Origin: Dipteris shenzhenensis
Taxonomy: Eukaryota
Length of the DNA: 64,000 nt
Reading direction: 5' to 3' (one strand)
NCBI GenBank assembly: GCA_047967505.1
Contig: CM106538.1
Shown: positions 1 to 39,789 of the stretch, in pieces
Numbering within the stretch: the stretch's first letter is position 1
How the letters are laid out: each line of letters begins with the position of its first letter
Translations under genes and position numbers: made by a program
Notes under the pieces: generated by a model
Database searches by the model: none
Seen by the model: the letters and a program-made list of their open reading frames with translations, nothing else
Told to the model about the DNA's origin: nothing

Positions 1-99
1 TATGTACAATCTAAAGACACTACAAATTTAGAAATGAAAATTGTGGTCATATGGGTCAAGCTCAAAAAAGATGTAGCCTATGTTCAACAACACGTCTTC

Positions 100-1556
100 A
101 TTTCCTCAATTGGTTGCATTGCCACATCCTCATTTACATTGAAACTATGTATTTTTGTCAAAACTACTTCCATGGTAGCTCGCTCTTTTGGATCATGCCT
201 GCATAGCAAGTTCCCGCAATGAACCAAGAGTTAGATTGCAATGTCTCCCTTTATCGAGTTTAGCTCCTACAACATCTATGAGAAGGTTGGCAATTTCTCT
301 AAATAGCCAACCAATAACAAAGCAATCTGACAATCTGGTGCCCATGCGCCCCTGGGATTTGGAATTCTAATCATTGTTCTGGCGCAAACCATGGAAATGC
401 CTTTGAAGGAGCATGAACCAGGTCTTGTGGATACCTACTTTTAGTCCAGTGGAGTCTTTCCCGATCAATAATCACTTCTTGCATGGACTTGTGATCCCTT
501 GTGAAATCCAACATGTAGTTGGTTGCTTGTAGGTCGGTGAGAGCATATCTGTATTTGTGGACTGCTCTCAAATAGCAGCAGCAATAGACAAAGCATGCTG
601 ATAGAACAACCTGCGGCTTGCAACTTGATGAGCGGGGAGTTCCAGGCAAAGCGAGGTCCTTCTCTTGGATTTGTGGACGTAACCCATCTCACACATGCTC
701 CACAATGCTGTGGGAGACACATTAGCATATCGTGCATAGTTCCTCCATTAAAAAATGGACTGACTACCCAAAGCTCTTGAGTGTGTGAGTACCCTAATCC
801 CTGCCAAACACCTCTATGGACCATTGTCATTGCTAGCTCATTCTTTAGTGCTACATGAGTGTGGGCATCATCTCTATTACTCCTCTTGCCAGCATACCAC
901 GATGTTGCTCTAAGACCTGGGACACCCACAACCTGTATCCAAAAACCTTTCCTTCTTCTCCCTTGCCCACCAGTTCATGCATGGTTAGCACTTGCAATGG
1001 AGAGTAGACTGTGTGAGAGCACATGTCGGCAAGTGTTGTACATAGTTGTATTTGTGCTCTCCCTCAACTTGGGCTGGATCAACATTTGCATCTGATCCAC
1101 TAGCCATCTTGGTCATATGGACTAGGGCACTGGCTGTTGCCTTTCCTATAGCCCCTTTCTCCTTTATGTTTTTTCTTCGAGTAAAACCCGCAATGCCTTC
1201 CATTTAGCTAACTAGAGTGCAAGCTTCTCCTCTCCATTATGACAAGCAAGGAGACATTGTTTGCCTTTCCATATATTTCCCACCATTGACCTATAGGGTG
1301 TGCCAATACTCGAGGGAAAATTTTCTCAACTATCAATTTAACGTTTGAACTTAACATTCGGCCACATCCTTGCTAGTTCATGTACAAAAGGTCAAATATA
1401 CGGATTTGCATTGGATCTCATAAATATTTTGACATCGCAATGGCCCAAATTTCTTCGTCACTCAATCCTACCAAGTTTTCAGCTCTCGTTCAACTGATGG
1501 ACAAGCATCCGAACCTCAGCCTTTAACTGGGCTGCTTTGTTCTCTTGTGTTGCCAT
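100..1556 (-). pseudogene. Protein kinase pseudogene (frameshifts and stops)
   Basis: Kinase subdomains appear in order across minus-strand frames: YAGKRS (II), ALKNELA (III), LWVVSPFFNGGTMHDML (V), LTDLQATNYMLDF..VIID (VIb/VII-like), PWFAPE (VIII), TRLSDCFVIGWLFREI (IX), CRHDPKERATMEVVL (XI). Candidate ATG at 1556. No obvious introns. Confidence 0.72.
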
Positions 1557-2106
1557 CAAGGATAGGTGTGTAGTGATTTAATGCATGCAACAATCATTTT
1601 GTAAGCACTAAAACTACTTTAAAATAAACTACACATGAATTACATGACATGCAATGCTAATGTAAATTAAGCTACTCACAAATGACATGCAACACAATTG
1701 ATTGTCATGATGCAAAATAACTTTCATAGAAGTTTGATCCATTGAATAATAAAATACCAAATACGTTTTTCTTTTTAAATGTTAACATCCACAAAGTATA
1801 GTCACACCAAATGCACGGTAATCAGTGATTAGAGGTGATTAGGCTTCATGATCTACTTCAATGGACAAGCTCAGGGAGTTTGATCCCCAAATACCCCAAG
1901 GCCAATGATTGCAGGCAACCTGCACATTCTGATCTACTTCAATGAAAATATCCAAGGAAGGAGTACAACACAAACTCAGGGAGTTTGATCCCCAAATACC
2001 CCGAGGCCAAAGTGTCCAAGCAATGTGCATAGTGGTATGTTCCAGCTGCCAAGTTATAAGTTCCAATTGCCATAGTTGTATGTTCCAGCTCCAAGTTTTG
2101 GTGAAG

Positions 2107-4650
2107 TGTCTCACGGAAGTTAAGCCTTGCCACTCCAGGCTTTGAGCCTCATACACGGGCTTCGAACCGCAAATGGCTTAAGGTGTGAGCGCGCTCCGGG
2201 AGTTTGAGCCCCAAATCGCCTAAGCCTTGGAGACGCGAGGCTAACACAAGCGCTATTTGGGAGTCGGTTAGGAACACCTCCTAATGCCACGTTTGTCCCA
2301 AGTGCTCTTATATGGTTAACACGAGCACTATTTCTGCTAGCAAGGAGAGATGGAAAGAATAGCAATATGCCTTGGCACCCTACGGGCCCAAGAGACATTT
2401 TATTATAAGAGAGGGAGTGTGCTAAAAGGAAAAAGGTTGGTCCTCCCTTCAAAAGGTGACATGTATAAAAGACCAAAGTGTGGACTTTGGTCTTCATTGT
2501 TGTTTGCACAAAATTGAATACAAGCTCCCTCTTCTCTTCCAAGTGAGTGTTTTGGGTGTTCCCTTGTTTGCATTGTAGTGCCCTTGTGTTTGCCACTCCA
2601 TCCCCCTTCACTCTCCTCTTCCCTTCTCCTTCTCCCTTCCTTCTCCCCTCTCTTCTCCCCTCTTCCCCTTCCCTGTTTCTCGCGTGCAACAATCCGGAGG
2701 CCGCTTGAGTGACACTTGCGGATGGCTCATACCTTGCATTTCTCTCACAAGGAGTAGCTTGGAGTGGAGGCTCCATTGGCATCTCTTCAACATCCCCCAC
2801 GACACATGAGTCACTGCTGAGACCCACACATTTTTGGTGCCACTGCTGGTGGGGAATGAAGGTATGCTTTTGCATTGCACTTGTTTTCCTGCATTATCTA
2901 CCCATTGCACAATGCTTCAAGCTTAACTTGGAGCTTTGTTAGTGGAGTTGTAGGAGAGGAAAGGGTGAAGAAGTGAGAGTTTTGGATGGAAAAGTTAGGA
3001 AAGCTATCATTTTTTGTTGGAAAGTCATTTTGGTCATTTGAGGCTTGTTTTTTATGCTTTTTAGTTTTTTGAGTTGATAGGAACCTAGTTTGTGAGATCG
3101 CTAAGGAGTATGTGATGTCCAAACACATAAAAAAACAACAATATGATGATTCTTGAGGAATTTTGAAGTTGTTTTGTGTGCTAGAACCCACCCCTCAAGA
3201 TATCTTGCAAATCCCCAAAAACCAGTTAGCGACGTAGTGTTCCACTATCCCCACAAGTCAGCACCATAGAGTTATCCCATCGACTGGTGCATTAGCAGTA
3301 TCCCATCAATCAAACCATGTTGACCCGACACGTTAGCCATATCTCGTTGACCTAATCTCTAACCACAGACTCACTCGCCGCCTTGATTAAATGCATGTCA
3401 AAGTGCATTATCTTGCCAACCTGACAATCATTGACCCGTGGCCTTAGAACTATCCCATCGACCATTGTTATCTCGCTAATCTGCCATCGGTGCGGTAAGC
3501 CCACCTCAATGCCCATGGTCATATTCGTATTCCACCAATAATCGTGTCAGGCCTATCATGCCTCTATTGCTATATTAATTATGCCAATCATCACATTACG
3601 GCTACTCCACCCGCCCGTTGTGATTTTCTATTCCCATGCCCGTTGCCATAAATACCTCGTCGACTGGTGCATTGATCAAAATCCCACCGACCTCTTTACC
3701 CCACCACCCATTGTCTTAACCTTATCCCTATGCCCGTAGGGATACTACTTGCATCTTATCCTGCCTAACACATGGCAATATTTATTTCGCCAATCGTCAT
3801 GATACACCTACTCTACCGCCCATTGCTATAATTATCCCGCTGACCGCTGCTCTACTAGTATCCTACCGTCCAATGTGACCCCCTATCCCTATGACCATCA
3901 CCATAGAGCTATCCCTATGACCGTTGGAATACCTCTTGGGTAGCCAAGAGTTAAAAAAAAACCAAGAACCTCAGTTCAGCCTAAATGTGCATAGCTAGAG
4001 GTCTCCCACATGCACTTGAGGTCTGGGAGAGTTTTGCCCAAGGATCCCATGCCAAAAGATAGTGCTAGCTATGCTCAACCCACCCTTTGCCCTAGCTAGA
4101 GATTCAAAAGCTAGCCCCCACTCGTTTATAAGACCCTGACAAGAAGATCTATCTAGCTCCGACGAGACAGAGAGCTTGGACAAAGTAATGCAAGACCCCT
4201 CAGGTCCAAGGGTTTCCAAAGCCCCATTCACTAGTGTTGCCTCTCCCAACTCTCCTACACCTTTGGTTGCATCCAGGTTGAGAGGTACCTTCTCCAACAT
4301 GTTCAGACATTTAGGCCAAATAGAGTCGACTGACATGGAGAACTCCTTTGCCAACATGTCGACAGGAAGGGAAGGTCAGTAACATCCAGCTCCCAAACCA
4401 CAGACCGGGATGAAAACCACCTTTGCAGACCCAGGTTCCTCTGCCTATGCAAGACCTCCCCAATGGGAACACATGAAGGATGAAGATCCATAAATGAGGG
4501 AATTCCCAGGGCAAGATCCTAGCTGAGGGGGTGCAAGGAACCTCCAAGGAGGGCCACCTTATGAACCCCCAACATTCTAGGTGCCACCAACCTTTGTCAA
4601 CTATGGGGCACCGCCGTTCCCACCTTATCACCCATTGCATAGAACTAATG
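2107..4650 (+). mobile_element. Possible decayed LTR-retrotransposon (Gypsy-like) 5' portion
   Basis: Abrupt compositional change starting TGTC at 2107, a CT-rich leader, a repetitive C-rich tract at 3230-3930, then MHLRSGRV and a Pro/Ser-rich gag-like reading at ~4010-4600. No pol domains seen and boundaries are approximate. Confidence 0.3.
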
Positions 4651-4660
4651 TTCCCATGCC

Positions 4661-5564
4661 CAGACTTCCACTCTAGTTTGGAAATCTCTCATAACAAGGG
4701 ATTGCTTTTCAAAACTTTTGAAAGAAATTGCAAGCCTATCATAATCTTGTTTTGCAGGGTCTTGTAGCTTAACCTTTGAACTTGCAAAAGTGGTTCTAAA
4801 TAACAACCCCCACTATGGCTACTACAACTTGCTCCACCATGGCTATTCTTTGTATCCTTCCTAGCCTGGAGAGTTTCCTCATTGTATTCTCCATGGTGGC
4901 TAACTCTCTGCCCTATCTTCCTGGCCTTGAATCTCTCTTGTAGCTTTTGCATCACTGCTCTAGTTTTTGAATTCTCCCTTTTTAGTTCCCCCATCATCTA
5001 GTCTATTTCAATGTTTAATCCATTCTGAATGTTGTAGAGCCATTTCTAAAGAGCCTCCTTTTTGACTCTCTGATCTTCAAGATCCTTTTGCATCATTGCT
5101 AGCTCCTTGTCTGTGATGTCCCCATCAGTTCTAACTTCTTCAAGCCTATCTTGGAGCTCCTTGATGTGCTTCTTTGCTTCTTCTCTTCCATGCCTTTCCA
5201 TGTCAACCATTTTTCTAGCGGCCTCAGCTTGCTCTCATGCTTGCAAGGCCCTCACTTATTCCTCCTCTACCTTGGCTTCTGCACCCTCCCTAAGAATTTT
5301 CTCAAGTTGCTATTCCTTTGCTGCATCGGTGGCTTTCTTTTGTAGAAAAGTCGCCTTTGGAGACATCTTCTTATCATATTGCTCAAAAATCCCTTTGAGG
5401 GTAGATTTCATCAGGTGCATTGCAACTCTATCAGACTGAGATGACAATTTGGACTTGCCATTCATGCATTTTTTCAAGTCGGTTATCATGCTCTTGAAGA
5501 TCGCTCTTGAGAAAGAGACATCACATCCTTTGAGTTGCTCTACTACCACCCCTCGATGCAACAT
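4661..5564 (-). pseudogene. Truncated copy of the coiled-coil ORF at 13720-15847
   Basis: Clear nucleotide similarity to ~14500-15405. VVEQLKGCDVSFSRAIFKSMITDLKKCMNGKSKLSSQS matches VVEQLKRCDVSFSRVISKSVITNLKNCMDGKSQLSSQS. In-frame stops present. Confidence 0.75.
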
Positions 5565-5589
5565 GATCTCAATATTATTTGCAATGGCT

Positions 5590-6760
5590 ATTGGTAAGTG
5601 GTTATGGTTGCTAGATATAATCTTTTGGCCTCTAAGGCTCTAAAAAATTGCTGAGTTTTAATAAATGTAAGATCTTCTATTCCATTTTTGCTCAGTATAA
5701 GTTGTTAATTTTTATATAACCTACTATTGGATGTAGATGTAATCTCTTGTACTCAATTTTTACTTGATGAATTGTAGTTGATTATTTGGATGGCACCAAT
5801 AGGCCTCCAGTCACCGTGGTAGCTTGGAATAATTTTGCCCTCATTTTGGATTTATTGCAAAACAAGGATTGAAATAACTGTAAAGTAGGACTATAATTTC
5901 CTTGGTTTAGGATCAAAATAGTGTTAAAATAGCTCCAACAACCCACTGTGGTGGTTGCATGGAGATACATCTAGAAAAATACAATTAAACTTTTAGAAAA
6001 TGCAATTAACAATGTGGCCCTTGAGGGGTTCCCTCTAGGGGCAAGGGCCATATCAACATGCATTATACAATATCCAAGATGCCACAAGAATAGAAATGGC
6101 ATGTTGATATGGCCCTTTCTCCTTAAGGGGACCCCCCAAGGGCCATATCGTCAATTGCATTTTCCTTGGTTGAAAAGGAAATACACTTTCCTTGGTGCGC
6201 TAATATATAACTCCAAGAACCAGTGCGGTGGTTGTCATAGATCTTCATTTGTTTGCCAGCGCGATGGTCATCTTAGATCTCCTTCTATAATAATTAAGAA
6301 AAATAGGTAATGGAGCCATAACTCCAAGAACAAGCGTGGTGGTTGCTCCAAGCCAACTTTGAATTTTCTTGATCTTCACAGGCACGCTGCCCGATGATAG
6401 GTGGCAAAGCTGCTACAAAGGGATGGGCAATGACAGGTGGTCAGTGCACTGCAGTGATGTTCATAATGATAGATTGGGTCTCATTATTAAGCCAAGAACC
6501 AGGCGATGGTCTCTCCAAGCCAACCTTGAATTTTCATGATCTGCATGGGCGTGTTGTCCAGTGACAAGTGGCAAAGCTACGGCAAAAGCCTGCATGATGA
6601 CAAGTGGTCAGGTGAGGGATTGCATGGTGCAAAGCAGTGTAGAGATGCACGATGTTGTGCAAAACTGCCATTTGTTGAGCTCTGTGTTGTTCAAACTACA
6701 TAGGTTGCATCTCATTATTATGCCAATGCAACATCATGATGTCTGGCAAACTTGGTCTTC
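5590..6760. repeat. Dispersed repeat, direct copy of ~17870-19125
   Basis: Collinear similarity by eye, e.g. gttgcatggagatacatctagaaaaatacaattaaacttt is present in both, as is the hairpin block. Confidence 0.85.
5997..6163. repeat. Nested inverted repeat (hairpin), copy 1
   Basis: aaaatgcaatt...tggcccttgagggg...aagggccatatcaacatgc is inverted relative to gcatgttgatatggccctt...ccccaagggccatatcgtcaattgcatttt. Arms are ~65 bp. Confidence 0.85.
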
Positions 6761-7929
6761 AAGTTGTAGTAAACATTCCAAACTTGAACATGAGAGAAAT
6801 AAATTATGGAACAAGGATTTGGAGAAAGATAGTTAAAGCATTACAAGTGCTGTGTTGCATGTGAAGCATGCATCTTGAAGACTATAGGATATAGGAATTT
6901 ATTTAAAAACATCAAAATTTTGTTCTATATATACATACCACTAAGTAATCATTCAAAAGTACACTATCTGAGCTTCTCCTCAATCCAAGGACACACCTAA
7001 ATGAGAATATTAGGCATGGGTTAATGGGCCTCCAATGTTGTGCTAAAGTGATGGATACTCATTTGAGGGCACGCTCCATAACTTTTTTTTGATTTGTTAA
7101 AAACAAAAATAGATTGAAAATTTGAAATCTAAACTAGTGGAACTACTGCATGGTGGTCTTAAAACATTGATCGTTGTTGGTATTGGTATCTAGATTCACT
7201 CTAAAATGGAAAAAGTTGAAAAAGTGCAATTTGTGCATGTGCAAAGATATTTTAATAAATCCAATACTATTTACAATTTTGAATTGTTTCTTTTTCCATG
7301 CACTTGCTTGATATATGGATCATAAGCATGCCAAAGGTAATTTCATTTCATAATACATAGCATCAAACCTGATAGTATGCCCTTTGGCCTATTTGTGTTT
7401 TAAAACATTTTAGGCCACATTGCACTTGTTTGGGATATCCAATTCTGCTGACATGTATCGTTGAAGAGGGGAAAACCAGTGGCTGGAAATTTTGCTACTC
7501 CCACGAATTTTGAATTTTCACACCTCCTGCCCATCAAATCTTGGAAGATTAAGTACCTGCAACCTGCCCCTGCCCTGCAAACACTTGCAACTGATGCACA
7601 CCTTGATGTGACCTTGCGTAGACTTTGGTTTGCCATTGTCTTCTTTCGGGTAAGTTGCCTTCTATTCTTTGCTTGCCTCACCATCTAGCTTCTCTGGTTC
7701 TATTTTGTACTAATTGTGGCCATGGCATCAATGGCAACATGTAGCTCACCATGGCTTGCAAGAGAAGTAGATAGAGGCTGCGAGACAAGATATCTGAAAA
7801 TCCAGGTCAAGGCACAAGGAATAGATTGCGGGTGAAGGAAAGCGTTGGCATGGTATCAAAATAGCAACAACAGAAGATATTTTTGCAACATCAACGAAGG
7901 GAGAAACAATGAGAAGAAAGAAGTGTCTT

Positions 7930-8490
7930 GAACCAGCGTGGTTGAGCAGACATTAATTATTGGCCAACCCGGTGGTTGAAATTATTGTGTTCCTTAGTAC
8001 TTGAACTCGTTAAATTTAATTTCCTACTATTTGGGTCATATACCATTATTTCTAGACCAGGATGGCTTGGACTTAATGTGATTGTCCTAAAGCAGCCCGA
8101 TGCTGGTTCAAGACAAATGATTTAAGATAAACATCAAGCAATTATGACATAAATTGGGACTGAAATTGTGAAATTCAGAAATGAAAAGCAATATATTCTT
8201 ATTTTCTAATTATGAAATTCAGAAATGAAAAGCAATATGCTTGTTATTGTCTAATATGTGAAGTTGAGACTGTTAGGCTAAACCAACCCGATGCTTAAAA
8301 TTGTGGTAGTGTCCTAAACCATCTTGGTGGTTTAAATTGTGACTGTCCTAAATGTGTCCTAAATCAGCCTGATGATTGACTGTCCTAAATGTGTCCTAAA
8401 CCAGCCTGGTGATTGAAATTATGGCTAGTCCTAAACCAGCCTGGTAGTTGAAATTGTGACTATCCTAAACTAGCGTGGTGGTTGAAAATG
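7930..8490 (+). repeat. Degenerate tandem array (~35-45 bp unit, gtcctaaaccagcctggtggttgaaattgtga)
   Basis: Repeated cctaaaccagcctggtggttgaaatt variants immediately upstream of the transposase. Confidence 0.75.
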
Positions 8491-8544
8491 GCTTTGCTTC
8501 ATTATATATTTTAATTAGACTATGTTTTGTCTTGTTTTAGTAGT

Positions 8545-11500
8545 GCAAAAAGAAGGCTCACTATTCTATTGTTCCCCCATGTTGAGTTAGCAGCAGCAGA
8601 CAGAGTTGTATCTTAAGTTTATGGATCAAAATCTAGGCATTTCAATTGGGTAGAGGAGCTTTGAGCATTCTAAGCCCTAGTACATCAGGAAACTCAAAGA
8701 CAGGAATGTTTGTTGTTGCAAAACATACATCGACTTTGACTTGACTCATTGGCAAGCTATGAATGACTTGACATTTAGTCGTGTTGGAGCATTGCTCCAT
8801 GGTAATCAATGCCCATGCCTCCCCAATGAATGCATCATCTATAGGCCACCTGGATCCTCATCATGTGCTGCAAGTGAGAGCAAGTTTTGTAGCCTAAGGT
8901 CTTTGTGGGAGCCAATGGTTTGTCCAAAGGGAGACCATGAGTGGCACCACATTGAATGTATTTGTGGTACATGAAGCATTGCAGTTTAAAGCTAAAGAAG
9001 AAGACATTTCATGTCTATCCAAATGAAATGAGGGAAGACAACCATGTTGCTCTAAAATGGAGGTGATTTGAAAATGTTAATGTTGAAGGATCTGAGAAAA
9101 AGAGATGGCTATTGTCATATAGGAGCACATAGCCAAGGGATCTTATAGGTCATGTGGTTCAATCCATCCCAAAATATGTGCTTCACAATTTCACGGCTAG
9201 CCTAGCAGGATAAGTAGTTCAGGACATGCCTTACCAATTTTCCCCATGACACTATTTTCTTTGTTATAGATTTTGTAGAAAATTATTCATTTGAAGAACA
9301 AGATGAGATACAAAGTGCTCACCGGTACAACAAGCATATAACAATTCTGGTATATCATGTACATTCATTTGCTTGATTCTTCTACGCTTGATGCCAATCT
9401 ACTTGTCGACTCACAAGAGTCGAGGTCACTACAATGCACATACCATTTCTACATTCAGATGATAGGGAACATGACACCTTATTTGTGCAGCAGCATGGTT
9501 TTCTACTGCATTGGGAATGGTTGAAAAACGAAAATCCCCATGCAAAAAATATAAAACAACATTGGATGTGGTCAGATGGTGTTGCCTCTCAATTTAAATT
9601 AGCATGTGGATTCTATTTTGTCTCAAGGTTCAAATCCCTGACCAATCTAGACATGATGTGGAATTTTGTTGGGTCTACCATGGCAAGGGTGAACATGATG
9701 GATGCAGTATTGTTATTAAGCAAGCTTTGTTTAAACACCAATTAACATGCCCTTAAGAAAAATTCAATGATGCCCATGATGTTGTAATATGGCTTACAAC
9801 CAACCTCTCCACAGGTATGCATTCAACATACAGTAAACAAAGCCTTAAGAATAGTCTAGTATGCAGAGTGTTCCATGAAGTGAAGTGGATGAAGTGCAAA
9901 GGAGAAGCTGACACAATTGTGAGAAAATCAAAGGAGTGCGTGGTCTGTACAACATATGGGGCTTTTCAAACAACCAAATAAATAAAACAAGAAATCTTTC
10001 TTGTTTGTAGTGTGTGCATCATAGGGGATATCCAAGGGAGCTTATAGGTTAGATGGTTCAATCCATCCCAAAATATGTGCTTCACGATCTCACGGTCACA
10101 GGATAAGTAGTTCAGGATTGCATTACCAATTTTCCCCATGACATTATTGTCTCTATCATAGATTTTGTTGAAAATTATTCATTTCAAGAACAAGATGAGA
10201 TACAAAGTGCTCACTCGTACAAAAAGCAGAAAAGGAAAATCCCCATGCACAAAACATAAAACAATATTGAATGTGGTCAGATGGTGCTGACTCTCAATTT
10301 AAGTCAGCCTGTGGATTCTACTTTGTCTCAAGGTTCAAATCCTTGGCCAATCTAGACATGATGTGGAATTTTTTTGGGTCTACCATGGCAAGGGTAAACA
10401 TGATGGATGCGGTGTTGTTATTAAGCAAGCTCTATTTAAGCACCAATTAATATGCCCTCAAGAAAAACTTAATGATGCCCATGATGCTATAACATGGCTT
10501 ATAGCCAACCTCTCCACAGGCGTGCATGCAACATATAATAACAAATCCTTAACAATAGTGCAGTACACAAAGTGTTCCATGAAGTGAAAGTAGATGAAGT
10601 GCAAAGGAGAAGTCGGCACGATTGCGAGAAAATTAAAGGAGTGCATGGTCTGCACAACATATGGGGCTTTTCAAACAACCAACTAATTAAAACAAGAAAA
10701 CTTTCTTGTTTGTAGTGTGTGCATCATAGGGGATAGCCAAGGGAGCTTATAGGTCACATGGTTCAATCCATCCCAAATATGTGCTTTACAATTTCACGGT
10801 CAGCTATTGGCAGGATAAACAGTTCAAGACATGCCATACCAATTTTCCCCATGACACTATTGTCTCTGTCATAGATGTTGCTAAAAATTATTCATTTCAA
10901 GAACAAGATGAGATAGAAAGTGCTCACTGGTACAAAAAGCAAATAATAATTCTTGCATATCACATACAGTCATTTGCTTGATTCTTCTATGCCTGATCCA
11001 ATCTACTTATTACTGACTCACAGGAGTCCAGGTCAGTGCAAATGCACATATTGTTTCTACATTCAGATGATAGGGATCATGACACCTTATTTGTGCAGCA
11101 TGGTTTTCTACTGCATTGGGAATGGTTGAAAAAGGAAAATCCCCATGCAAAAAATATAAAACAATATTGGGTGTGGTCAGATGGTGCTACCTCTCAATTT
11201 AAATCAGCCCGTAGATTTTACTTTGTCTCAAGGTTCAAATCCGTGACCGCCGGTCTAGACATGATGTGGAGTTTCTTTGGGTCTACCATGGCAAGGGTGA
11301 ACATGATGGATGCGGTGTTTTTATTAAGCAAGCTCTATTTAAACACCAATTAACATGCCCTCAAGAAAAATTCAATGATGCCCATGATGCTGTAACATGG
11401 CTTACAACCAACCTCTCCACAAGCATGCATTCAACATATAGTAAACAACGCCTTAAGAATAGTGTAGTACGCAGAGTGTTCCATGAAGTGAAAGTGGATA

Positions 11501-12166
11501 AATTGCAAAGGAGAAGCTGGCACGATTGCAAAAAAATTAAAGGAGTGCGTGGTCTGCATAGCATATGGGGCTTCTCAAACAACTAAAAAACTTTTTAAAA
11601 CAAGAAAACTTTCTTGTTTGTAGTGCATGCATCATAGGGGATCATGACGATTGTGAGAACATTGCAACTATGAAGACATGGGAGCAAGTTCAAGTTTTCC
11701 CTCTATGTTCAGATGGAATGACAAAAAATGGAGAGACAAACGATGCCACATTTTGGGGAGAGTTTCGATGACCTCACTGAGTGTCTAGAAGAGGGGGATA
11801 ACTTTGTAGTTGCTGTCACTGCCTCTAGGCAGAACGAAGAAGATGGCCCATACTTTCTGTTTGCAGTGCACAAAACCTAAGCACAAAGTTGAGGAAGCAT
11901 TCAAGGATAATTGGGGAACAACCTATGAGAAGTGGGATGTAGTAGTCGGAGCTTTTTGGTACAAAAAGACATCCAAGAGCGGCCATAATCACAAACTACT
12001 ACGTAAGACTCCACAAATGTTTTTCTACTCTCATCTAGTAAGAGCTATTACGTTCTAGATGCAACCTGTTCCATAACGAAAGAAGGGAAATATTGTCTTC
12101 AAATTGGATTTAGATATGCATGAGCACATCTTGGGGTGTCTTGGAGTGATGGATGAGGACAACTGA
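8545..12166 (+). mobile_element. Sola2-like DDD transposase pseudogene with a triplicated catalytic core
   Basis: Motifs: KPxYIRKLKDRNVCCC, a Cys-rich region, IDFVENYSFQEQDEIQSAH, SDDRDHDTLFVQH, WVWSDGATSQFK, HGKGEHDGCG, C-terminal YSHLVRAITF. Many stops and frameshifts. The Sola2 assignment is from recalled motifs. Confidence 0.7.
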
Positions 12167-12916
12167 GATAGTACTAAGAAAATGTAGTCTCATTGCAACA
12201 AGGAAACAATATTCCACTTATCCTAGCAAATGGAAAATGTATTTGAGACTATGCTTCTCTTAGTAAATCCCAAACTAACCACCACACTTGTTTTTGTAAA
12301 TCCCAAATAATAGATCCCATGCTTTTTAGTATATCCCAAACAGCCATCGTGCTGGTTTTATTATTATTTTTTTGTGTAAATCTCAAACGGTATATCCCAT
12401 GCTTGTTTTTAGTATAGCCCTACAACCAATGCACTAGTTTTATTAAATCCCATAACGAATCCACACATCCACAAATCCATTCATCTTGTAATAATACAAG
12501 CAAACCACCACATTGGTGGATATTAATATCCTAGTGCAACCAACCACCGTGCTGAGATGATCACTTATCCTACACTAGTATCGTGCTATCCTTGCACTAC
12601 TGTCATGCTATCCTAAATTTTTTTGCATATTGCTATTCTAAAACAATCCCCTTTAGACTCGTTATCTTTAACCATCATATTTCAACCACCGAGCTACTTA
12701 AAACATTTAAGTACTAACATGGAAGCAGGTCGATGAAAAATCAGGTATTACGAGCATCATAGATCATGGATGATGGCAGCCGAGAAAGTCCACAAGTCCA
12801 AGAAATGCTTGCAAGATTTTTACTTTTTCAAAATACAATGACATTTTGTGGCTAAAGGAAATTCCTCTTATCAACCTCTTTATAGCAAGCATCTCCCAGC
12901 TCTTTAGGCTAGTCTA

Positions 12917-13305
12917 ATGGACTATAGCAAACCTCTTCACACACTCAGATCACACACTGCTTGCTTGTCTCTACTGACTTGTACACCCATAGCAACTCCT
13001 CCTTTTGCTTGGGGTCCTCTTCATCCTAGTATTTGCGCTCTATACAACTTCGCACCTCCATCATGTCCTATCAAAAGAGACCTACATCATGAGCTTGACC
13101 CAACTACCTTAAAGGAGCATGAAAAACAATAGCCAGGGAATTTAATATTCATCGTCTTTGTTGACTCCAAGTAATACACCCACCACTGAAGCATGTCCTC
13201 CTTGTAGCTATTTTCCTCCTTCTCCAAGTCTATTTCTTCGAGGAGGTCATTCAACATTGTTTTTAGATAGAACAAAAGCATTCCAAAGTCTTTTGGGTAT
13301 GCCAT
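12917..13305 (-). pseudogene. Small decayed ORF of unknown function
   Basis: MAYPKDFGMLLFYLKTMLNDLLEEIDLEKEE... reads as protein-like and continues through stops. A TATTTAA-like motif lies ~80 bp upstream on the minus strand. Confidence 0.3.
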
Positions 13306-13429
13306 AGATTCATAGTAGGTGGATCGGTGTACAGAGTTTTGGGGCTAGATTTCATAATGGGCTCTTAGTTGTGTCTACATGGCACTTAAATAGGGAGAGA
13401 GTTCATTGGGCCTGACCTTCTCATTCTTC

Positions 13430-13570
13430 ATTCTCACATTAATTGTCTAATCAAAATCTTTCATCTCACATTAGTTGTCTGATCGAAATCTTCCATCTCA
13501 TATTAGTTGACTAATCGAAATCTTTTAGTCTCACATTATTTGGCTAATCAAAATCTTTTGTCTCACATTA
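13430..13570. repeat. Minisatellite, ~31-bp unit, 4-5 copies
   Basis: tctcacattaRttgtctaatcRaaatctt is repeated. Confidence 0.8.
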
Positions 13571-13719
13571 TGGTCCTTGGCATGTTAAAGGACACTATTT
13601 AGTGACATAGCTGAGAAAACATTGCCCAACTAAACTTTGGAGAAGATTAACAATTCAATAGATTACACACAGATTGCATAGATTACATCCCAAAGACTCC
13701 TTTGCTTCATATTACATCT

Positions 13720-15847
13720 CAAGGACTGCTTTCCTTTTAGGGGGTTGGTTTTTACATTGCCTTGAGTAGGTTGCCTTTTTGAGCTCCCTGATTGCAAGCT
13801 CAACCCTCCTTGCTCCTTTCTAGAAGGGGGCTTGTTCCTTCCTTCAGGGGCCTGGCCCCTTCCTTCATGTCGCTTTCTCTTTCCTTGATTTGAGCTTCTT
13901 GGTTGTAGGCCTGGCCTTCTTGCTCCTTTCCTAAAGGGGGCTAGTTCCTCCCTTCAAGCTCCTTTTCCTCAAAGTCAGCAGGCTCGGTCTTGGAATTCTT
14001 CAATTTGAGCTCCTTGTCTTTTTCATTTTTTCCCAAATGGAAAATTGAGCTGTAGCATGTACTTTCTCATCATAGATAGCTATAGTAGGCAACCACATTT
14101 GATATGTTCATGGCCTGGGAAATGGCAAATGACATTCTCTACATAGCGATCTTGCATGCATAAACACCCCAAAGCAAAAAACATGCACAAGATGGTAGCA
14201 TGCAAGCCATCGGATCATGCAGTCATCTATGATGGGGGTATGGCAGACCATGCATTTCGCATTTCGGACCGTACTACATAGTAGGATAGGCATCTGATTT
14301 AACTATTGTGACTGTCAATACCACAGTCTTGCTCTATACATGACAAAGTTGCTTCTTGATTCCTTCCTTCCTCATCCTAAGGCTGTGGATGTTCTCCTTC
14401 ATTTCCTCTACTCTTTGCTCACTATGTGCAATAGCTTCATGTGAATCCCTCAGTATCTTTTGAAGCTACTCAATTGCTCAAAAACATATACATGGGCCAT
14501 TTCTAAGGCTTCCACTCTAGTTTAAAAATCTCTCAAGATGATGGACTACTTTTCAAAACTATCGAAAGCCATAGAAAGCTCGTGCACAACCCTATCATAA
14601 TCTTTGTGCAAGGTCTTCTAGCTTACTCTTTGAACTTCCCAAATTGTTTCAAATTAAAAGCAACCCTCATCATTGGCTACTCTAACTTTCTCCACTGTGG
14701 CCGCTCTCTGTATACTTTCTGGCCTGGAGAGCTCCCTCATTGTCTTCTCCACCCTAGCTACTCTCTGCCCCATCCTTCCTGGCCTTGAAGCTCTCTCATT
14801 GTTCCTGAATCACCTTTCTGGTTTCTGCATTCTCCCTTTTCAACTCCTCCATAAACTGGTCTTTTTCAATGTTTAATGCGTTTTGATGTTGAAGAGCCAT
14901 TTGTAAAGACCCTTCTTTTCGGCTCTCTAATCTTCAAGCTCCTTTTGCATCATTTCTAGCTCCTTGTCTATGATGTCCCCATCACTTCTCACTTCTTCAA
15001 GCCTATCTCAGAGCTCCTTGATGTGCTTTTTTGCTTCTTCTCTTCCATGCCTTTCCATGTCGACCATTTTTATAGCGGCCTCAGCTTGCTCTTGTGCCTC
15101 CAAGGCCCTTGCTTATGTCTCCTCTACCTTGACTTCTGCACCTTCCCTAAGAATTTTCTCAAGTTGCGCTGCCTTTGCTGCATTGGTGGCTTTCTCTTGT
15201 AGAAAAGTCACCTTCTGAGACATTTTCTTATCATATTGCTCAAAAATCCCTTTGATGGTCGATGCCATCACGTGCATTGCAACTCCAGTAGACTGAGATG
15301 ACAATTGGGATTTGCCATCCATGCAATTCTTTAGGTTGGTTATCACGCTCTTGGATATCACCCTTGAGAAAGACACATCACATCTTTTCAATTGCTCTAC
15401 TACTGCTTGAACCTGACACAACTTTACGATTCCTCTCGTATTAGGAAAGAAGTGAATAGTCTTCTTCATCAGCACATCTTGGAGGTCTGTTGGCAAGCCA
15501 AAAAGCTTGACTCCACCATCTATACTAATCTGAGTGTTGGGGTATACATCTAGAATATCATGTCTCTTCCACTGCTTCGTGAAGAAGTGTGCTTGCATAT
15601 TGCCTCCAGGAATGCCTAGTGCATTTTCAATCATGCTTTTAGTGATGGTAATCTTCTGACCTTGACACACTAGTTGCCCCTCCACGTTCACCTCCTGTAC
15701 CAACCTAGTGAAGTTTTTGAGAGCAATCAAATTGGGCTTTTGAAGAGAGACATAAGATGAAACAGTAAATGGAAACGGAATAGTGGAGGCTTGAGTTTGT
15801 AGTTCAAGTGCAAGGAAAAAGAAACGGTTGAGAGAGATAGAAGACAA
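13720..15847 (-). pseudogene. Decayed ORF: N-terminal transposon-type domain, long coiled coil, RING finger, K/E-rich tail
   Basis: The 244-aa ORF 15113-15847 continues past the stop as an E/K/Q-rich heptad region. 14108-14293 encodes CMVC...ACYHLVHVFC...CREC (RING-H2-like spacing). LVCQGQKITITKSMIENALGIPG recalls accessory ORFs of plant transposons. Confidence 0.65.
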
Positions 15848-15969
15848 AACAGTTAAGGGATTAGAATAGCGGAGGCTTAAGTTTGTTGCTTGACTACACT
15901 ATCAAAGTGAGAGCCATCGTAGTGGTTGGCCCAAATTTTGATTAATTCAAGAAGGAAGTACTACCTTGC

Positions 15970-17045
15970 ATTGTAATGAGTGATTAGAGGTGGTGGCATC
16001 TAAGATTTCCAACCACATCTGTGGTGGCAACCAAGATCCATTGGGCTGGTAGTTAATTACTAGCCACCGCAGTGGGCCGCAATTACTCACCTTCCAATTA
16101 CCACTACCGGGCTTGCATGCATGATTACTACGAGTGCAGTAAATTACCAGTCACTAGGCTTGTATGCTTAGGAGAGTACTAGAGTGCATGGTAATGAGTG
16201 ATTAGGCTTCATAATTTACTTTTGTGGTAATTAGCACCCAGTGGTGGTGGCTCTCATCGTCCACGTCTGTAGTGGTGATTGGGCTGGCAGTAATTACTAG
16301 CCACTTCAGTGGCCCGCAGTTACTCACCTACCTTTTACCACCACTAGGCTTGCATGCATGATCATTGTGAGTGTAGTAAATTACCAATCACTAGGCTTGC
16401 ATGCTCACTAGAGTACTAGAGTGCATGGTAATGAGTGATTAGAGGTGATTAGAATTCATGATTTATGTTTGTGGGAATTACTACCCGGTGGTGGTGGCTA
16501 TCATTAGCCATGTCTGTTGTGGCTAAGATTCCACCGGGCTGGCAATTAGTTACCAGCCACCGCAATGGCTTGCTCACCCACCACCGGGCTTAAGCATGCA
16601 TGATCACTATGAATGCAGTAAAAATTACCAGTCATAGGGTTGGCATGCTCAGTAGAGTACTAGAGTTCTTGGTAATGAGTGATTAGAGGTTATCAGGATT
16701 CATGATTTACTTTTGTGGGAATTACTGCCCTGTGGTGGTGGCTCTCATTAGCCACGTAGTATCATGGCTATGATTCCACTGGGTTGGTAGTTAATTACTA
16801 GCCACCGCAGTGGCCTGCTCACCCATCAACATGCTCAGTAGAGTCCTAGACTGCCTAGTAATGAGTGATAAGAGGTGATTAGGACTCATGATTTACTTTT
16901 GTGGGAATTACTGCCCGGTGGTGGTGGCTCTCATTAGCCAAATTTATCATGGTTAAGATTCCACTAGGCTAGCAGTTAATTACCAATCACCGTAGTGGCC
17001 TATTCACCCACCACTGAGCATATGCTGCATGATTACTAGCTCATC
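15970..17045. repeat. Tandem array, ~190-245 bp unit, ~5 copies
   Basis: gtaatgagtgattagaggtg anchor recurs near 15973, 16190, 16427, 16671 and 16857. A partial unit also occurs at ~1815-1860. Confidence 0.85.
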
Positions 17046-18278
17046 TGGGGTGGCGCCTAAGATTCCACCATGGTGGTCTGCAACAATAAATATGGATGGA
17101 ACCTTGGGCTCCAGCATTTTACTACATTGCTCTCATCTGCCCTTGCTTTGCTACTTTGCTCCACACCCTTTCTCTAGCTCTTTTCCACCCCTGATGTACT
17201 TTGCTCCATGCTCCCTCCTCCAACTCTCTGCTCCCCTGCTCATATGCTGCTCACCCACTCATCTTCACCATGCCTACTACCACCCCCCCTTGATGTATTG
17301 TGATCCCAATGTTGTCTTCCTTCTCATATAAGGTGATTGCATTGCACTCACCTAGAATAGAAATGCTAGCACTAGTGGAGACCCTTCCTTCCCATAGTCG
17401 ATTCCCCCTATATCTGCATGTCACCACCTTATCTGACATGCTCACCTCTGACCTCGTTATGGTTGTGTTGTATGGGTTCCCCCTAGATGTCGACGAAGGC
17501 CTCAATATTTTTACAACAGAGTACTCTCGACTTGTTGGAGGGGCTGTAATCTAAGTCATGGCAATGTGCATGGTCTTCAGCCTCTCCATTGTCTCCTCCT
17601 TTGGCTCCCTAAACTTTTTTAATGCAACGAGCTAGGCTGGCGGAAATACTGAGTTGTACAAATTCCCTCTTACTTAGACAAGGCTCATAACCACTCAACA
17701 ATGGCTGGATGTAATCCTTTGGCCTCTAAGTCTCTCAGTGATATTTTGGCTCATTGGATGTAAAGTTTGGTCTCTAAGGCTCTCAACAGTTGCTGAGCTT
17801 TTATTACATTTATGTAATCTCTTTTTGTTCAATTTGAGGCTCTTAGTATGCACTGTTGTTAACTTTTATATTTGAATGGTTATGGTCGCTAGTTGTTGTA
17901 ATCTTTTGGCCTTTAAGGCTCTTAGCAATTGCCAAGTTTTTATAAATGTAAGATCCTTTGTTCAAATTTTTCTCAGTGTAAGTTCTTCATTTTTATATAA
18001 CCCATTATTGGATGTAGATGTACATTGTAATCTCTTTTGCTCAAATTTCACTCATTGAATTGTAGTTGATTATTTGGATGGTACCACTAGGCCTCCAGTC
18101 CACTACGGTGGCTCAGAATACTTTTTCCTCATTAATATTTATTGCAACAAGGACTAAAATACTAGTAAAATAGGACTACAATTTCCTTGGTTTAGGACAA
18201 AATAGTGCTAAAATAGCTCCAAAGACCCACTAATGTGGTTGCATGGAGATACATCTAGAAAAATACAATTAAACTTTC

Positions 18279-18447
18279 AAAAAATGCAATTAACGATATG
18301 GCCCTTGAGGGGTCCCCTCTAGGGGCAAGGGCCATATCGACATGCATTATATAGTATCTAGGATGCCACTAGATAGATATGGCATGTTGATATGGCCCTT
18401 ATCCCTAAAGGGGACCCCTCAAGGGCCATATCATCAATTGCATTTTT
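18279..18447. repeat. Nested inverted repeat (hairpin), copy 2
   Basis: aaaaatgcaattaacgatatggcccttgaggggtcccct... is inverted relative to ...aggggacccctcaagggccatatcatcaattgcattttt. Confidence 0.88.
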
Positions 18448-19329
18448 CTTGGTTGCACAAGGAAATACACTTTCCTTGGTACACAAATATATACCTCCAA
18501 GAACCATTGTGGTGGTTGTCATAGATCTCCTTCTATTTGCTAGTGCAAGTGTTGTCATAGACCTCCTCCTGTAATACATAAAAATAGGTAGCAGAGCTAT
18601 AATGCGAAGAACCTTCGCGGTGGTCGCTCCAAGACAACCTTGAATTCTGGGCAATGATAGGTCGTCAAGCTAGAGACTGCGATGAGGTAATGCTCAAAAT
18701 GATAAATTGTGTCTCATTATTATGCCAAAAACTAGTGCGGTGGTCTCTCCAAGCCAACCTATGATTTGCATGGGCAAAGTTGTGGCAAAAGGCTATGCGA
18801 TGTGATAGGTGGTCAGGCCAAAGACTATGTTATGGCGGTGTTTAGAATGATAGATTGCATCTCATTATTATGCCAAGAAGCAGCACATTAATCTCTCCAA
18901 GCCATCCTTGAATTTTAATGATCTCCATGGGTGCAGTGCCCAATGATAGGCGGCAAAGCTGTGGCAGAAGGTTGTGCGATGATAAGTGGTCAGGGCCAGA
19001 GATTGCTGTGCATGAAGCAGTGTAGAGATGCACGATGTAGTGCAAGGTTGCCATGTCGATCTCTACAGTGTTTAGAATAAATAGATTGTGTCGCATTATT
19101 CTGCCAGTGCGGCATCATGACGTTGGGAAAATTTCCAGCGAGAGCGTAGGTCCATGCAAAATTCAAAATTTCACCCAAGAGTGCCTCGTGTCACGGCCCC
19201 AAAATGGCCCCAAAAATAGTTGCATGATTAACTACACCCAAGCAAACGTTGACCTAAAGCCTATCTAGTTTGCAACAATTTGTAGGTTTTATGTGAAAGG
19301 GCCAAGCATGGAAAGTCCTTAATATGGCT

Positions 19330-19702: not shown

Positions 19703-19959
19703 TGACAAAATATGAAGAGGGGAGAGGAGAAGAGTGGAGATGAGGAGAGAGGGCACAGCTAGAGAGCACACCACAAATGACTAAATGTACACTAGATTTA
19801 GTTGAAAATGTAGAATATATATAAACCAATTTAGGGTTAGGAATAGGGGATCTAACCCTTTCCTTTATAGCACTCTATTGGGTTAGTGATATGCACATAT
19901 GATCACATGATGGTGCTATGTACACATGATCACATGATGTTAAGCATGAACTCTCAACA
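19703..19959 (-). repeat. Copia LTR (3' LTR of copy A)
   Basis: Reverse complement of the LTR family at 28460, 39962 and 43507. TG...CA ends, preceded by the PPT gagggaagg. Confidence 0.9.
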
Positions 19960-22900
19960 CCTTCCCTCAAGATCAACATCATGAAGTAGGCCTTCCATCA
20001 AGATGATGATTCTGGGGAATCAAAGAAGGACCGAGCATTACATTCCATCACACCCCTTTAATGGGAATGTCCTTCCTCTGCATCAAACCAAGAGCTAGTA
20101 GGTGTTTCTCGAATAGCTCTTTACCGAGTGGTTTGGTAAAAATGTCTGCAACATTCTCTTTGCTATCACAATGCTGTAGTGTGATGTCACCAAGTAACAC
20201 TCTTTCTATGATGAAGTGTTCTCTGACATCGATGTGCTTTGATATACTCGATCCTTGGCCAATGCTTGAGCTGATTGATTATCACAGTATATTGTTGTTG
20301 GCTTTGACTCATCAAAGTAATCTATTTCTGACAATAGTCTTTTGAGCCATATAGCCTCACATGCACCTGTAGTGAGTGCCCTGTATTCTACTTCAGTTGA
20401 AGACAAAGAAATAGTTGGTTGTTTGTTTGACAACCATGATATAGCACCTTGACCAAGGAAAAATGCATATCCCTATGTCGATCTCCTAGTCTCATAATCT
20501 CTGGCATAGTCATTGTCATAGTATCCATGCAACCATGGATGACTTCCTCTGTATTCTATCCCAAATTGTCTTGTACCTCTGATGTATCTCAAGACACTTT
20601 TGGCTGCATTCCAATGAGACTGTTTTGGATTTTTCATAAATTGTGCAAGTGAACTTATTGCATAACAAATATCTGGTCGTGTGATAGTCAGATATATAAG
20701 AGATTTGATGAGCTGCCTATAGTACCTGTCATTGACTGTAGGTTTTTTTGAATCCTTAGTAAGTTTCAAAATTTGTTCCATGGGAGTGGTTGCAATCTTG
20801 CAATCTTCCATATGAAACTTCTTCAGGAGACTGTCAACATGCTTGATCTGACTCATGAATGTGCTATCTAAATCTCTCTAGAACTCAATACCAAGACGAT
20901 ATTGTATAAGTCCAATATCTTTCATGTCAAACTTTGCAGATAAGTCTTATTTTATCTTTTTAATGAAGCTATCCTTACTTCCTATCAAATCAGATCATCA
21001 ATGTACAAAAGTGCAATAGTAATGTCTTCCCCTTGAACTTTGTAGTAGAGAGTATGATCTGCATTGGACTTCATATATCCTAGATTAGCAAAATACTTGT
21101 CGACTTTGCTGTACCAACTTCTAGATGCTTGCTTTAAGCTGTAGAGACTTTTCTTAAGATTGCAAACCTTATTCTCCTTTCCTAGTTCAACATAGCCTAC
21201 TGGTTGTTGCATGTAGACTTCCTCGCCTAGATAACCATTGAGAAATGCATTCTTGACATCGAGCTGATACACATTCCATCTGCTGAGTGTCGCTAGTGAT
21301 ATCAAGAACCGTATGGAATCCATCTTTGCTACTGGAGTATAAGTCTCATCATAATCTTGACCATATTGCTATGCAAATACTTTTGCAACTAGTCTGGCTT
21401 TGTATCTTTGAATACTTCCATCTAGATTGTACTTCACTTTGTATACCCATTTGTTTGTTGCTATGGCCTTCTTTCCTGGTGGAAGGTCGCATAATTCCCA
21501 GGTATTATTCTTATACAAAGCATCCATTTCGTCATTCATAGCAATTTGCCATTCTGGCTTGTCTACTGCATCTTCAAAGTACATTGGCTCTTCTGTAGCC
21601 ATGACGGTAGTCATAAGAGCATAGTTGGTAGTCTCAACCTGAATTGCTTTGCCTTTCTGAGCATATGTCAATCTGGTTGGAGGTCTGCTTTCCCTGATAG
21701 ACAATCTCAGCTATTGTGGCTCTACTTGAGGTGTTTCTCGCAATTCTTGCTCTTCTTCATCAACCTGTTCTGTAGATGACTATGAAGTCAATGCTTCTAT
21801 CTCCTGTGTATTTGAGGTTTTCCATCCTGATTCCTCATCAAAGATTACATCTCTAGAGATAAGGACCTTGTGGTTGATGGGATCATACAACTTGTATGCT
21901 TTGCTTTCTTCACTGTAGCCGACCATGATGACATTTTTCTAACCTTCTAATGGTTTCATCTCTGTGAACCATTCCTTATGCTTTGTCATGTGAGATGATG
22001 CACCCTATCGATGACCAAGGATCCTATTCTGCGTGGTTGACTTGAGAGTTGAAATCCTCTTTTGGATTAAAATCAGTGTGTACACTGTATAAGTTTCCTG
22101 TGCATTTGCTCATTTGCAAGAAACATATTCCCATGTTCCTTTGCAAAATGACTATGACTACAATGTCCACCACAATGATTTCCTCTTCTACAGAAATTTC
22201 CTCGATTGCTATTGCATTGACTGCCTTGGTCATATTGCTTCTTGTGGCAATCTCTTTCATAGTGTCCAAACTTATGACAGTAGTTGTACTGGATGTTTGA
22301 CACATTGGTGGATGCATTCCCTGGTCCTTGGAATCTTCCTCAATTGGAATGATTTCCTCTTTGTTGATTCTGATGTTGCTGAGGATGATGCTAATGTTGA
22401 TGCCGCCGACTCTGACTTTGCTGACCTCTTTCTGCCCGTTTGGTTTTCTACCATGGCTTTGAATTTTTGAAATCTGGAAAACACTTCAGATTCCTCTTTA
22501 AGAAAGTAGACCCAACAATATCTGCTATAGTCATCGATGAAAGTAAAGTAGTAAAGTGAACCATTGATGTTGCGTGTCTGGGCATAACCCCATACATCTG
22601 TATGTATCAAATGAAGAATACCTTTAGCTTGAGAGGTGCTTCTGCTGAACTCTGGTTCTCTTTTGTTTGCTGAAGCAGTATGCTTCGCAAGCTTTTCCAA
22701 GAAATTGTAGCGTAGGAATCCCAATTGCCATATTCTAATTACTAAGATCTATCAAGCCTTGAAACTGACATGTCCATAACTCTTGTGCCATTTTGTCGAA
22801 TAGTGGCATCTGTTGCGATTGAGCTGACATGGCATGCAAATTTGGTACTGTAGCTAGTATTCTAAACAAGCATCCTTCCTTAACAGATTTTCCTACTAGC

Positions 22901-25395: not shown

Positions 25396-25776
25396 GGAGG
25401 GAAACTCTGGTTGATTTGGTTTCTTAGTGTGAGAATCCTAGAAATGTTCTTGGAATCGTAGAGAGATGTGAACATATCCCATGCTTCTTTTGATGTCTTG
25501 ACGGTGTTCATCTATCCTAGCATGACATCTTGCACATTCTTCTTGATCAGATGATATGCATACTTGTCTTTCTTGTCCCATTCTGCCTCTGCTCGGGCAA
25601 TGGAAAGATCTGCTATAGGTGCAAAAACTGTTTGTGTAGATGGAGATCCTGCTATAGATCTCGCGACTCGTGTTGTGACAATAGGTGGAGTAGAGCTACT
25701 ACTGGCTAGATCATCCAATGGTCTAGGTGTAGATCCATCAACATACTCCCATTTGTCCTGAAGTACAAGAATGGTC

Positions 25777-39770: not shown

Positions 39771-39789
39771 GTGCTATGATTTCTATCCA

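Follow-up and report, generated by a model that had tools for sequence, protein, structure and literature searches.

The 64-kb stretch of Dipteris shenzhenensis DNA analyzed here (GenBank assembly GCA_047967505.1, contig CM106538.1; hereafter, the window) holds at 8.6-19.1 kb what may be the dead relic of a two-gene, Sola-like cut-and-paste transposon of the Asp-Asp-Asp (DDD) type. One of its genes would be T1, a transposase on the + strand, and the other ORF-B, a convergent accessory gene for a protein of ~600 amino acids (aa) with a RING-H2 end, bordered on its 5´ side by a tandem array and a long hairpin. A 2.1-kb stretch at 4662-6753 (copy A) would be a second, truncated copy, a fragment of the ORF-B side. 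We give the reading in which T1 and ORF-B form one two-gene element, with copy A as a fragment of another copy, a probability of roughly 0.45. The analysis was based on the 64-kb window, on public protein and metagenome collections, and on published papers.

A decayed transposase and its relatives

A first-pass annotation of this DNA had proposed a decayed transposase on the + strand, and tblastn, HMMER and motif evidence bore this out, placing the equivalent of the catalytic exon of a DDD (RNase H-like) transposase at 8597-12160 (+). T1 is dead and carries many stops and frameshifts. A scan of the metagenome collections confirmed 109 of 458 candidate stretches as transposase relatives, and 80 of them were kept as loci (designated L001 onward); alignment A1 was too diverse for this locus scan, and A2 was used in its place. 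With the intact open reading frames (ORFs) of L001, L004, L005, L006 and L009 as tblastn queries, T1 covered residues 1-638 (E 1e-46 to 1e-54), and the motifs IDFVENYSF, WSDGVASQFK and HGKGEHDG could be read in it. HMMER comparison of a T1 read-through (11215-12168) with 1.84e9 proteins returned 45 matches at E<=1e-3 (best, 2e-12). The named matches are hypothetical proteins from Klebsormidium and Riccia, and one of the 45, an archaeal CARDB protein, looks spurious. A word-index protein search, which is weak for decayed queries, found nothing for a 123-aa T1 ORF with longer lengths allowed.

Intact ORFs of 608-658 aa were present in L001, L004, L005, L006, L008 and L009. The conserved Asp motifs of the relatives take the forms DF(A/V)ENY, SDG..QFK and HGKGEHDG, and D255, D338 and D379 (L001 ORF numbering) are invariant or nearly so in the 13 relatives of alignment A3. 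In a structural model of the L001 ORF (predicted local distance difference test score, 75), residues 231-432 align to the cores of retroviral integrase, Mos1, Metnase and TnsB (Z 8.7-10.8, root-mean-square deviation ~3-4 Å, 130-178 residues). Foldseek alone gave no match to this model at E<=1e-3, returning weak RNase H-like rows, the transposase profile had no match among PDB sequences, and Pfam assigned no family to 10 T1 relatives or to the L001 ORF. Given the 45 HMMER matches, the 109 confirmed stretches, the intact relatives, the conserved Asp residues and the modeled core, T1 is a true member of a transposase family.

The catalytic core of T1 is triplicated in tandem at 9129-11642 (+), a feature that had escaped the first-pass annotation. 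The triplication was recognized from direct-repeat families D1, D2, D4 and D11, from blastn, by which the units 9129-10028, 10028-10733 and 10733-11642 are 86-89% identical, and from tblastn, in which the protein coordinates restart at ~residues 239 and 224. This local event would have disrupted the core after the death of the element. Short tandem repeats with periods of 44, 37 and 35 bp (8164-8487; Tandem Repeats Finder) lie directly upstream of T1. On its other side, the spacer between the two convergent stop codons (12161-14107) holds a 32-bp tandem repeat (13425-13570), and no domain was detected in it.

In relatives (L004:708-1496, L005:2-889, L006:85-918, L009:2668-3477 and L003:469-1338), the catalytic ORF is preceded at a distance of 0.65-1.6 kb by a conserved ORF of ~270 aa with the motif RVSPNKKD and a weak helix-turn-helix match (E 0.0025). 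Since L012 has the two joined in a single ORF of 1106 aa, the ~270-aa ORF is probably the DNA-binding first (upstream) exon of the transposase. Both T1 and T2, the second transposase copy described below, are without this exon.

Convergent second genes in the transposase family

T2, a second and anciently diverged copy of the same transposase family, lies on the + strand at 39854-39961 and 43737-45402 (tblastn E 4e-121 to the L001 ORF). It is split by a Copia-type insertion (39962-43737), recognized by long terminal repeat (LTR)-like direct repeats and by RVT_2 in sister copies. The 237-bp LTR-like repeats (39962-40198 and 43507-43737) are 91% identical with TG...CA ends, and the 5-mers flanking the insertion, AGTAC and GGCAC, are alike at 3 of 5 positions. 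Directly upstream of the first T2 piece, 37561-39778 contains diverged tandem or dispersed repeats with units of ~250 bp that are 72-91% identical.

Convergent on T2 is a NIF pseudogene (FCP1/SCP-like phosphatase fold) at 49503-49940 (-), detected by Pfam (PF03031) and tblastn and separated from T2 by a long interspersed nuclear element (LINE) insertion (46323-49190; RVT_1). In a scan of 49100-50438 (-), this partner scored 24.8 bits against PF03031 (E 2e-5), above the cut-off of 21.8, and it matched the convergent ORF of L001 by tblastn (E 5e-13). The convergent genes of L001 (E 8e-15, 55.3 bits) and L003 (E 3.7e-6, 27.1 bits) are NIF genes that likewise score above the PF03031 cut-off. The transposases of L001 and L003 are 44% identical overall, with 36-57% identity to T2 per matched segment, and the NIF parts of T2, L001 and L003 are 30-33% identical. 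With three convergent NIF pairings across such divergence, chance adjacency is excluded: the NIF-like gene belongs to these elements, and its pairing with the transposase is old and inherited. No NIF similarity was detected near T1 or in further loci.

The transposon-linked proteins are highly diverged versions of the NIF/FCP1-SCP phosphatases, and that of L001 had no match among PDB sequences at E<=1e-3. The first motif of NIF/FCP1-SCP phosphatases is D-x-D-x-T; the transposon-linked proteins have D-x-N-G in its place (LVLDLNG, LVIDMNG) and so may be inactive.

Other relatives have other facing ORFs, among them one for an acidic protein that has a basic tail and carries a D-D-E-x-P-L motif (L045, L047, L051 and L053, with looser versions in L004 and L009). 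Within L047, high-G+C ORFs resembling bacterial genes by eye (3227-5279) stand beside the eukaryote-like transposon part; this locus is probably a chimeric assembly, and its downstream region is therefore unfit for use. Of the 12 loci in which the transposase is complete at its C-terminus and followed by 1 kb or more of sequence, 9 have a minus-strand ORF of at least 90 aa that starts within ~0.9 kb, by a hand count without a chance control. Because the pairing recurs, with NIF in T2, L001 and L003 and with other facing ORFs in other relatives, the combination of a transposase and a convergent second gene is a trait of the family. We found no published DNA transposon linked to a NIF/C-terminal domain (CTD)-phosphatase gene, subscription papers and Repbase Reports lying outside the search, and no Sola-like family with a NIF-like or RING-like facing gene in the searchable papers, a set that does not cover Repbase Reports and supplements.

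ORF-B and the repeat that contains it

ORF-B (15898-14108, -) reads in one frame with 17 stops as a ~597-codon pseudogene, in which an N-terminal region that belongs to no known family is followed by a charged, coil-like middle and, at the C-terminus, by the RING-H2. The first-pass annotation had described a minus-strand coiled-coil and RING ORF facing the transposase. The convergent orientation and the RING were upheld: the pattern C-x2-C-x14-C-x-H-x2-H-x2-C-x10-C-x2-C at 14132-14254 (-) fits exactly the RING-H2 expression C-x2-C-x(9-39)-C-x(1-3)-H-x(2-3)-H-x2-C-x(4-48)-C-x2-C and is its only match in the window. The coiled coil was less secure, consisting of composition and weak Pfam matches (E 0.03-0.5) rather than the output of a coil predictor. 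Pfam matches to the RING itself were sub-threshold (zf-ANAPC11, E 0.0099, 16.4 bits versus a cut-off of 25; zf-RING_2, E 0.87). Stops are dense at 14506-14302, where a better reading shifts frame, so the single-frame continuity of ORF-B is weak evidence. The best Atlas score for the ORF-B N-terminus (0.78, a plant-mobile-domain cluster) was under the usable level, and BLASTP against the N-terminal parts of Riccia fusion models gave E values of 2 or higher.

Part of ORF-B is repeated together with non-coding DNA, as had been proposed for the accessory ORF, in a repeat that we call R. Self-comparison identified two R copies on the minus strand, in the same orientation and 10-12 kb apart: copy A (4662-5546 and 5599-6753) and copy B (14506-19133), of which 14506-15403 and 17877-19133 match copy A. 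Identity is 82.6% between 4662-5546 and 14506-15403, 78.4% between 5599-6538 and 17877-18772, and 76.7% between 6458-6753 and 18839-19133. Copy A holds the 5´ two-thirds of the ORF-B coding region minus the first ~165 codons, plus the upstream hairpin region, and is 50-57% identical in amino acids to ORF-B residues 166-469 (57% over 270 residues). Copy B alone has the 2.5 kb at 15404-17876, which contain a 244-bp array and the first ~165 ORF-B codons. The homology ends sharply at 4662/14506 and 6753/19133, and the flanks beyond are without similarity. As the coil-like reading of ORF-B runs past 14506 into the RING, the boundary at 14506 marks the truncation of copy A and not the end of R. ORF-B and copy A are both pseudogenes, and no homologue of ORF-B was found elsewhere in the window beyond copy A. 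Because it is repeated with non-coding DNA, ORF-B must be part of some kind of repeat rather than a host gene present once.

The array noted by the first-pass annotation at ~240 bp has a period of 244 bp and ~4.3 units (15989-17038; Tandem Repeats Finder and self-comparison), lies upstream of ORF-B, and consists of units that are 73-83% identical to each other. The hairpin block, also noted there, was confirmed in both R copies. In copy A it occupies 5996-6164 (fold of 5990-6170, -107.5 kcal/mol, z -13.1), and in copy B 18280-18447 (fold of 18275-18452, -127.2 kcal/mol, z -20.4), where the 74-nt arms are 88% complementary; for either copy, none of 200 shuffles equaled the fold, and the stem is ~80 bp. 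Each arm forms a ~44-nt palindrome of its own (GATATGGCCCTT...AAGGGCCATATC), which makes the block two copies of a small palindromic unit. The near-perfect pairing is kept in both R copies despite ~20% divergence. Further local duplications are found at 6324-6444/6492-6611 and 18655-18760/18803-18908. The recurrence of parts of the locus at 100-6760, also proposed earlier, was confirmed for the partial ORF-B and the hairpin, both in copy A; the supposed partial array unit proved to be a fragment of 44-47 bp (1812-1858), 88% identical to part of the 244-bp unit (E 6e-10).

Origin of the T1 and ORF-B arrangement

ORF-B converges on T1 as second genes do in the relatives, it is repeated with non-coding DNA, the scans of 1-19300 gave no sign of any other element class, and the distant relative L039 also has a coil and RING ORF beside its transposase; these observations favor T1 and ORF-B as parts of one element. 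ORF-B would then fill the second-gene slot in the T1 lineage and would have moved with T1, and its protein, a putative E3-ligase-like adaptor, may formerly have targeted the transpososome or host factors. No part of the element still functions. The first-pass annotation had allowed that ORF-B might be owned by another element class. In six-frame Pfam scans of 1-19300 (stops read as X, E<=0.01 to 0.1; heavily decayed or frameshifted domains could escape), we found no hallmark domain of Gypsy, Copia, CACTA, Helitron, MULE or hAT elements (reverse transcriptase, integrase, Transposase_21/24, helicase), and the Copia sequence nearest ORF-B begins at 19703. The L039 ORF lies just downstream of the transposase and has the same RING spacing as ORF-B. 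No other ORF among the 1561 of the 80 loci has a RING pattern; the zf-RING_2 match of the L039 ORF is below the cut-off (E 4.6e-5), and in BLASTP with ORF-B only the RING half-motif aligned (E 0.011).

Several results weigh against a single element. tblastn with ORF-B (E<=1) found no homologue in the 80 loci, nor did word-index searches of the protein collection with the 261-aa N-terminus and the full 597 aa, so its association with the transposase is seen in one place. Copy A has no array, RING or transposase, with none to its left, where homology ends at 4662, and the ratio of nonsynonymous to synonymous substitution rates between copies A and B is 0.62 over 249 codons, which is near neutral. 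The RING ORF of L039 is on the same strand as the transposase and not convergent; L039 ranks 22nd to 39th among the matches to the three T1 pieces tested, and by a rough estimate its RING adjacency alone could be chance. The nearest T1 relatives (the L001-L010 clade) have NIF or acidic ORFs instead of a RING gene, and the T1/ORF-B spacer is 1.95 kb versus 0.25-0.7 kb in relatives. An N-terminal transposase exon was not detected upstream of T1, or of T2, at E<=5. Terminal inverted repeats (TIRs) and a 4-bp target site duplication (TSD), which the first-pass annotation had suggested looking for, were not found in the window: searches around T1 and R gave no TIR with a 4-bp TSD bounding any candidate element.

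Much of this also bears on another explanation, that R (ORF-B, array and hairpin) is an independent repeat of no recognized class, or a RING gene duplicated by a retro- or DNA-mediated route, and came to lie beside T1 by coincidence. We regard this as a real possibility without preferring it. The window is a dense nested mosaic, with a Copia insertion in T2, a LINE between T2 and its NIF partner and Copia sequence from 19703 on, and a coincidence fits with copy A standing without a transposase, the lack of ORF-B homologues in the 80 loci, the long spacer and the sharp ends of R homology. It fits less well with the lack of any hallmark protein of another element class in 1-19300, with R ends that have no TIRs, with the passage of the coil-like reading across 14506 into the RING, by which the boundary belongs to the truncation of copy A, and with an ORF-B orientation that matches the second-gene slot of the family. 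That copies A and B arose without transposition, when a segment holding a host-derived RING pseudogene was duplicated locally, seems improbable. The same 20 kb has other local duplications, namely the T1 triplication, the 244-bp array and the paired duplications within each R copy, and A and B share their orientation at a distance of only 10-12 kb, but the flanks of A and B share nothing, as is not expected of a simple tandem duplicate. Moreover, protein searches revealed no host-gene homologue of ORF-B, and its one continuous frame with no apparent introns would be more typical of mobile-element genes.

The first-pass annotation had interpreted the region as the decayed remains of a >12-kb Sola2 transposon, present in two copies, whose cargo would include a kinase and a RING-coil gene, a model that we consider very improbable. 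The array fragment shared at 1812-1858 is not due to chance, the kinase has a language-model lead (below), and some Sola elements are described in a review as exceeding 15 kb (PMC10741241). Copy A, however, is a 2.1-kb fragment without an adjoining transposase or RING, 1-4661 and 6754-14505 have no similarity except for a 44-bp match, and there is no transposase, RING or ORF-B homology in 1-4661. The kinase lacks hidden Markov model or PDB support, and no kinase was detected near T1 or T2, the 80 loci having had no kinase-specific scan.

Termini and relation to known transposons

The only inverted pair with a TSD in the window search was 13 bp long, which is at chance level, and termini sought in L004 and L009 and at the L013/L019 and L063/L065 boundaries were not convincing. 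In L063 (1080-1240 and 4160-4320) and L065 (390-550 and 3470-3630), the homology ends carry inverted telomere-like motifs, TTAGGG/TTTAGGG-like on the left and CCCTAA-like on the right, with no precise ends; by eye, L063 abuts a tRNA gene-like sequence. A repeat at 19703-21915 was considered as a long TIR of the element and rejected, as it is Copia pol (RVT_2 in a sister copy, rve nearby).

The Sola superfamily comprises Sola1, Sola2 and Sola3 (Bao et al., 2009, via PMC10741241, PMC4455052 and PMC3627910). As far as published descriptions of Sola go, T1 fits the superfamily: these give variable ends, occurrence in mosses and a transposase of the DDD type that has an RNase H-like core but is absent from Pfam (PMC10741241, PMC5751038); the T1 family shares the core and the lack of a Pfam model (PMC5751038 for Sola). 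The occurrence in mosses is consistent with the Klebsormidium and Riccia relatives of T1. The first-pass annotation had named Sola2 as the subgroup, while a review table gives Sola1 in Physcomitrella (PMC9033089). Reported Sola elements are 2-9 kb and sometimes >15 kb, with highly variable termini (PMC10741241). The DDD triad in an RNase H-like transposase, a Sola feature, is present in the relatives; a DDD/DDE core is common to other superfamilies and is thus necessary, not sufficient, for the assignment. The motifs of the T1 family presumably resemble those of Sola. A 4-bp TSD and TIRs of 11-1124 bp have been reported for Sola, and neither was found here.

Among plant DNA transposons, PIF/Harbinger (a transposase and a Myb-like ORF) and CACTA (TnpA/TnpD) are two-gene elements. 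They resemble the proposed element as cut-and-paste transposons that need or carry a second protein gene beside the transposase, and differ in their accessory domains; none of their Pfam signatures was found in 1-19300.

The first-pass annotation had taken Sola elements to be transposase-only. This is not the rule, as Sola2 elements carrying Fanzor1 have been published from dictyostelids (PMC3627910). They combine a Sola-type transposase with an unrelated passenger gene in the variable 3´ part of the element, a likeness to the arrangement proposed here, and their transposase is ~888 aa, compared with a probable ~270 + ~620-658 aa in our relatives. The passenger gene there is a TnpB/Fanzor nuclease and here RING-H2 or NIF-like, the orientation here is convergent and the hosts are streptophytes, and the Sola2-Fanzor1 termini and AWWT TSD (PMC3627910) were not seen in our sequences.

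A possible kinase-like relic and other features of the window

The language model Atlas gave ORFs at 371-974 (-) a lead to kinase-fragment clusters (0.92, 116-122 shared features), and remnants of kinase subdomains are readable there by eye, on which grounds the segment is possibly a very decayed Ser/Thr-kinase-like relic. Pfam gave no family at E<=1 for the ORFs 465-974 and 371-688, a six-frame scan of 1-2100 yielded none at E<=0.1, and no PDB kinase matched the ORFs at 371-974 at E<=10. The only tie of the relic to the rest of the locus is the 44-bp array fragment ~800 bp away. A kinase as cargo of the element, as previously suggested, is not supported, and the relic would be unrelated neighboring DNA.

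The window is repeat-rich eukaryotic DNA with a G+C content of ~40% and had no Rfam match over its whole length. At 30661-33864 (+) lies a host gene of several exons, apparently intact, that encodes an OPT oligopeptide transporter (PF03169, E 7e-25 and 9e-34 for two exons). Three nearly contiguous open frames of 503, 229 and 226 aa with two stops in between (56861-59747, +) matched no Pfam family at E<=0.01 and may be a gene, large and little decayed, that belongs to a different mobile element; upstream of them, an ORF at 55095-56009 has a weak zinc-knuckle match. Copia pol sequence is present in three copies (19703-21915, 26994-28690 and 41391-43737) with a mutual identity of 85-88%, RVT_2 being found at 27191-27634 and an integrase-like domain at 22272-22748. 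The first two of these are mutually inverted, with outer ends at 19703 and 28690. LINE-type fragments at 23594-25399 (zf-RVT, 23919-24341) and 46323-49190 (RVT_1, 46752-47288) are ~70% identical and inverted.

Discussion

To our knowledge, few DNA transposons have been studied as little as those of the Sola type, for which plants have provided only a small number of examples. The locus examined here is itself a dead, rearranged mosaic, and genome-wide evidence would be needed before the kinase or the 12-kb element could enter a repeat library. Of greater interest is the second-gene slot seen across the family, for which T2 and its NIF partner, located outside the part of the window that the first-pass annotation had singled out, give the best documentation. 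A passenger gene in Sola is already known from Sola2-Fanzor1 (PMC3627910); what would be new here, within the searchable papers, is a NIF-like or RING-like facing gene.

Taken jointly, the observations could be read as a streptophyte Sola-type DDD clade, spanning charophyte algae, bryophytes and the source of the window, that keeps a modular convergent second-gene slot filled in each lineage by host regulatory modules. These would be a NIF/CTD-phosphatase-like protein that is diverged and possibly inactive, kept across 36-57% identity, an acidic protein with a basic tail and, in T1, a coiled-coil RING-H2 protein of the E3 type, and such proteins would be transposon-encoded manipulators of host transcription or ubiquitination. 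We offer this broader reading as a doubtful one. What the evidence does indicate is a transposase that moves in company with a convergent second gene, in a family represented by intact copies in environmental eukaryote DNA; three of its lineages, deeply diverged from one another, have a NIF-phosphatase-like protein as the product of this gene. Should the RING gene prove to be another variant, the family would illustrate the recruitment by transposons of host signaling or ubiquitin-pathway domains and would provide testable candidates for transposon-host interaction factors.

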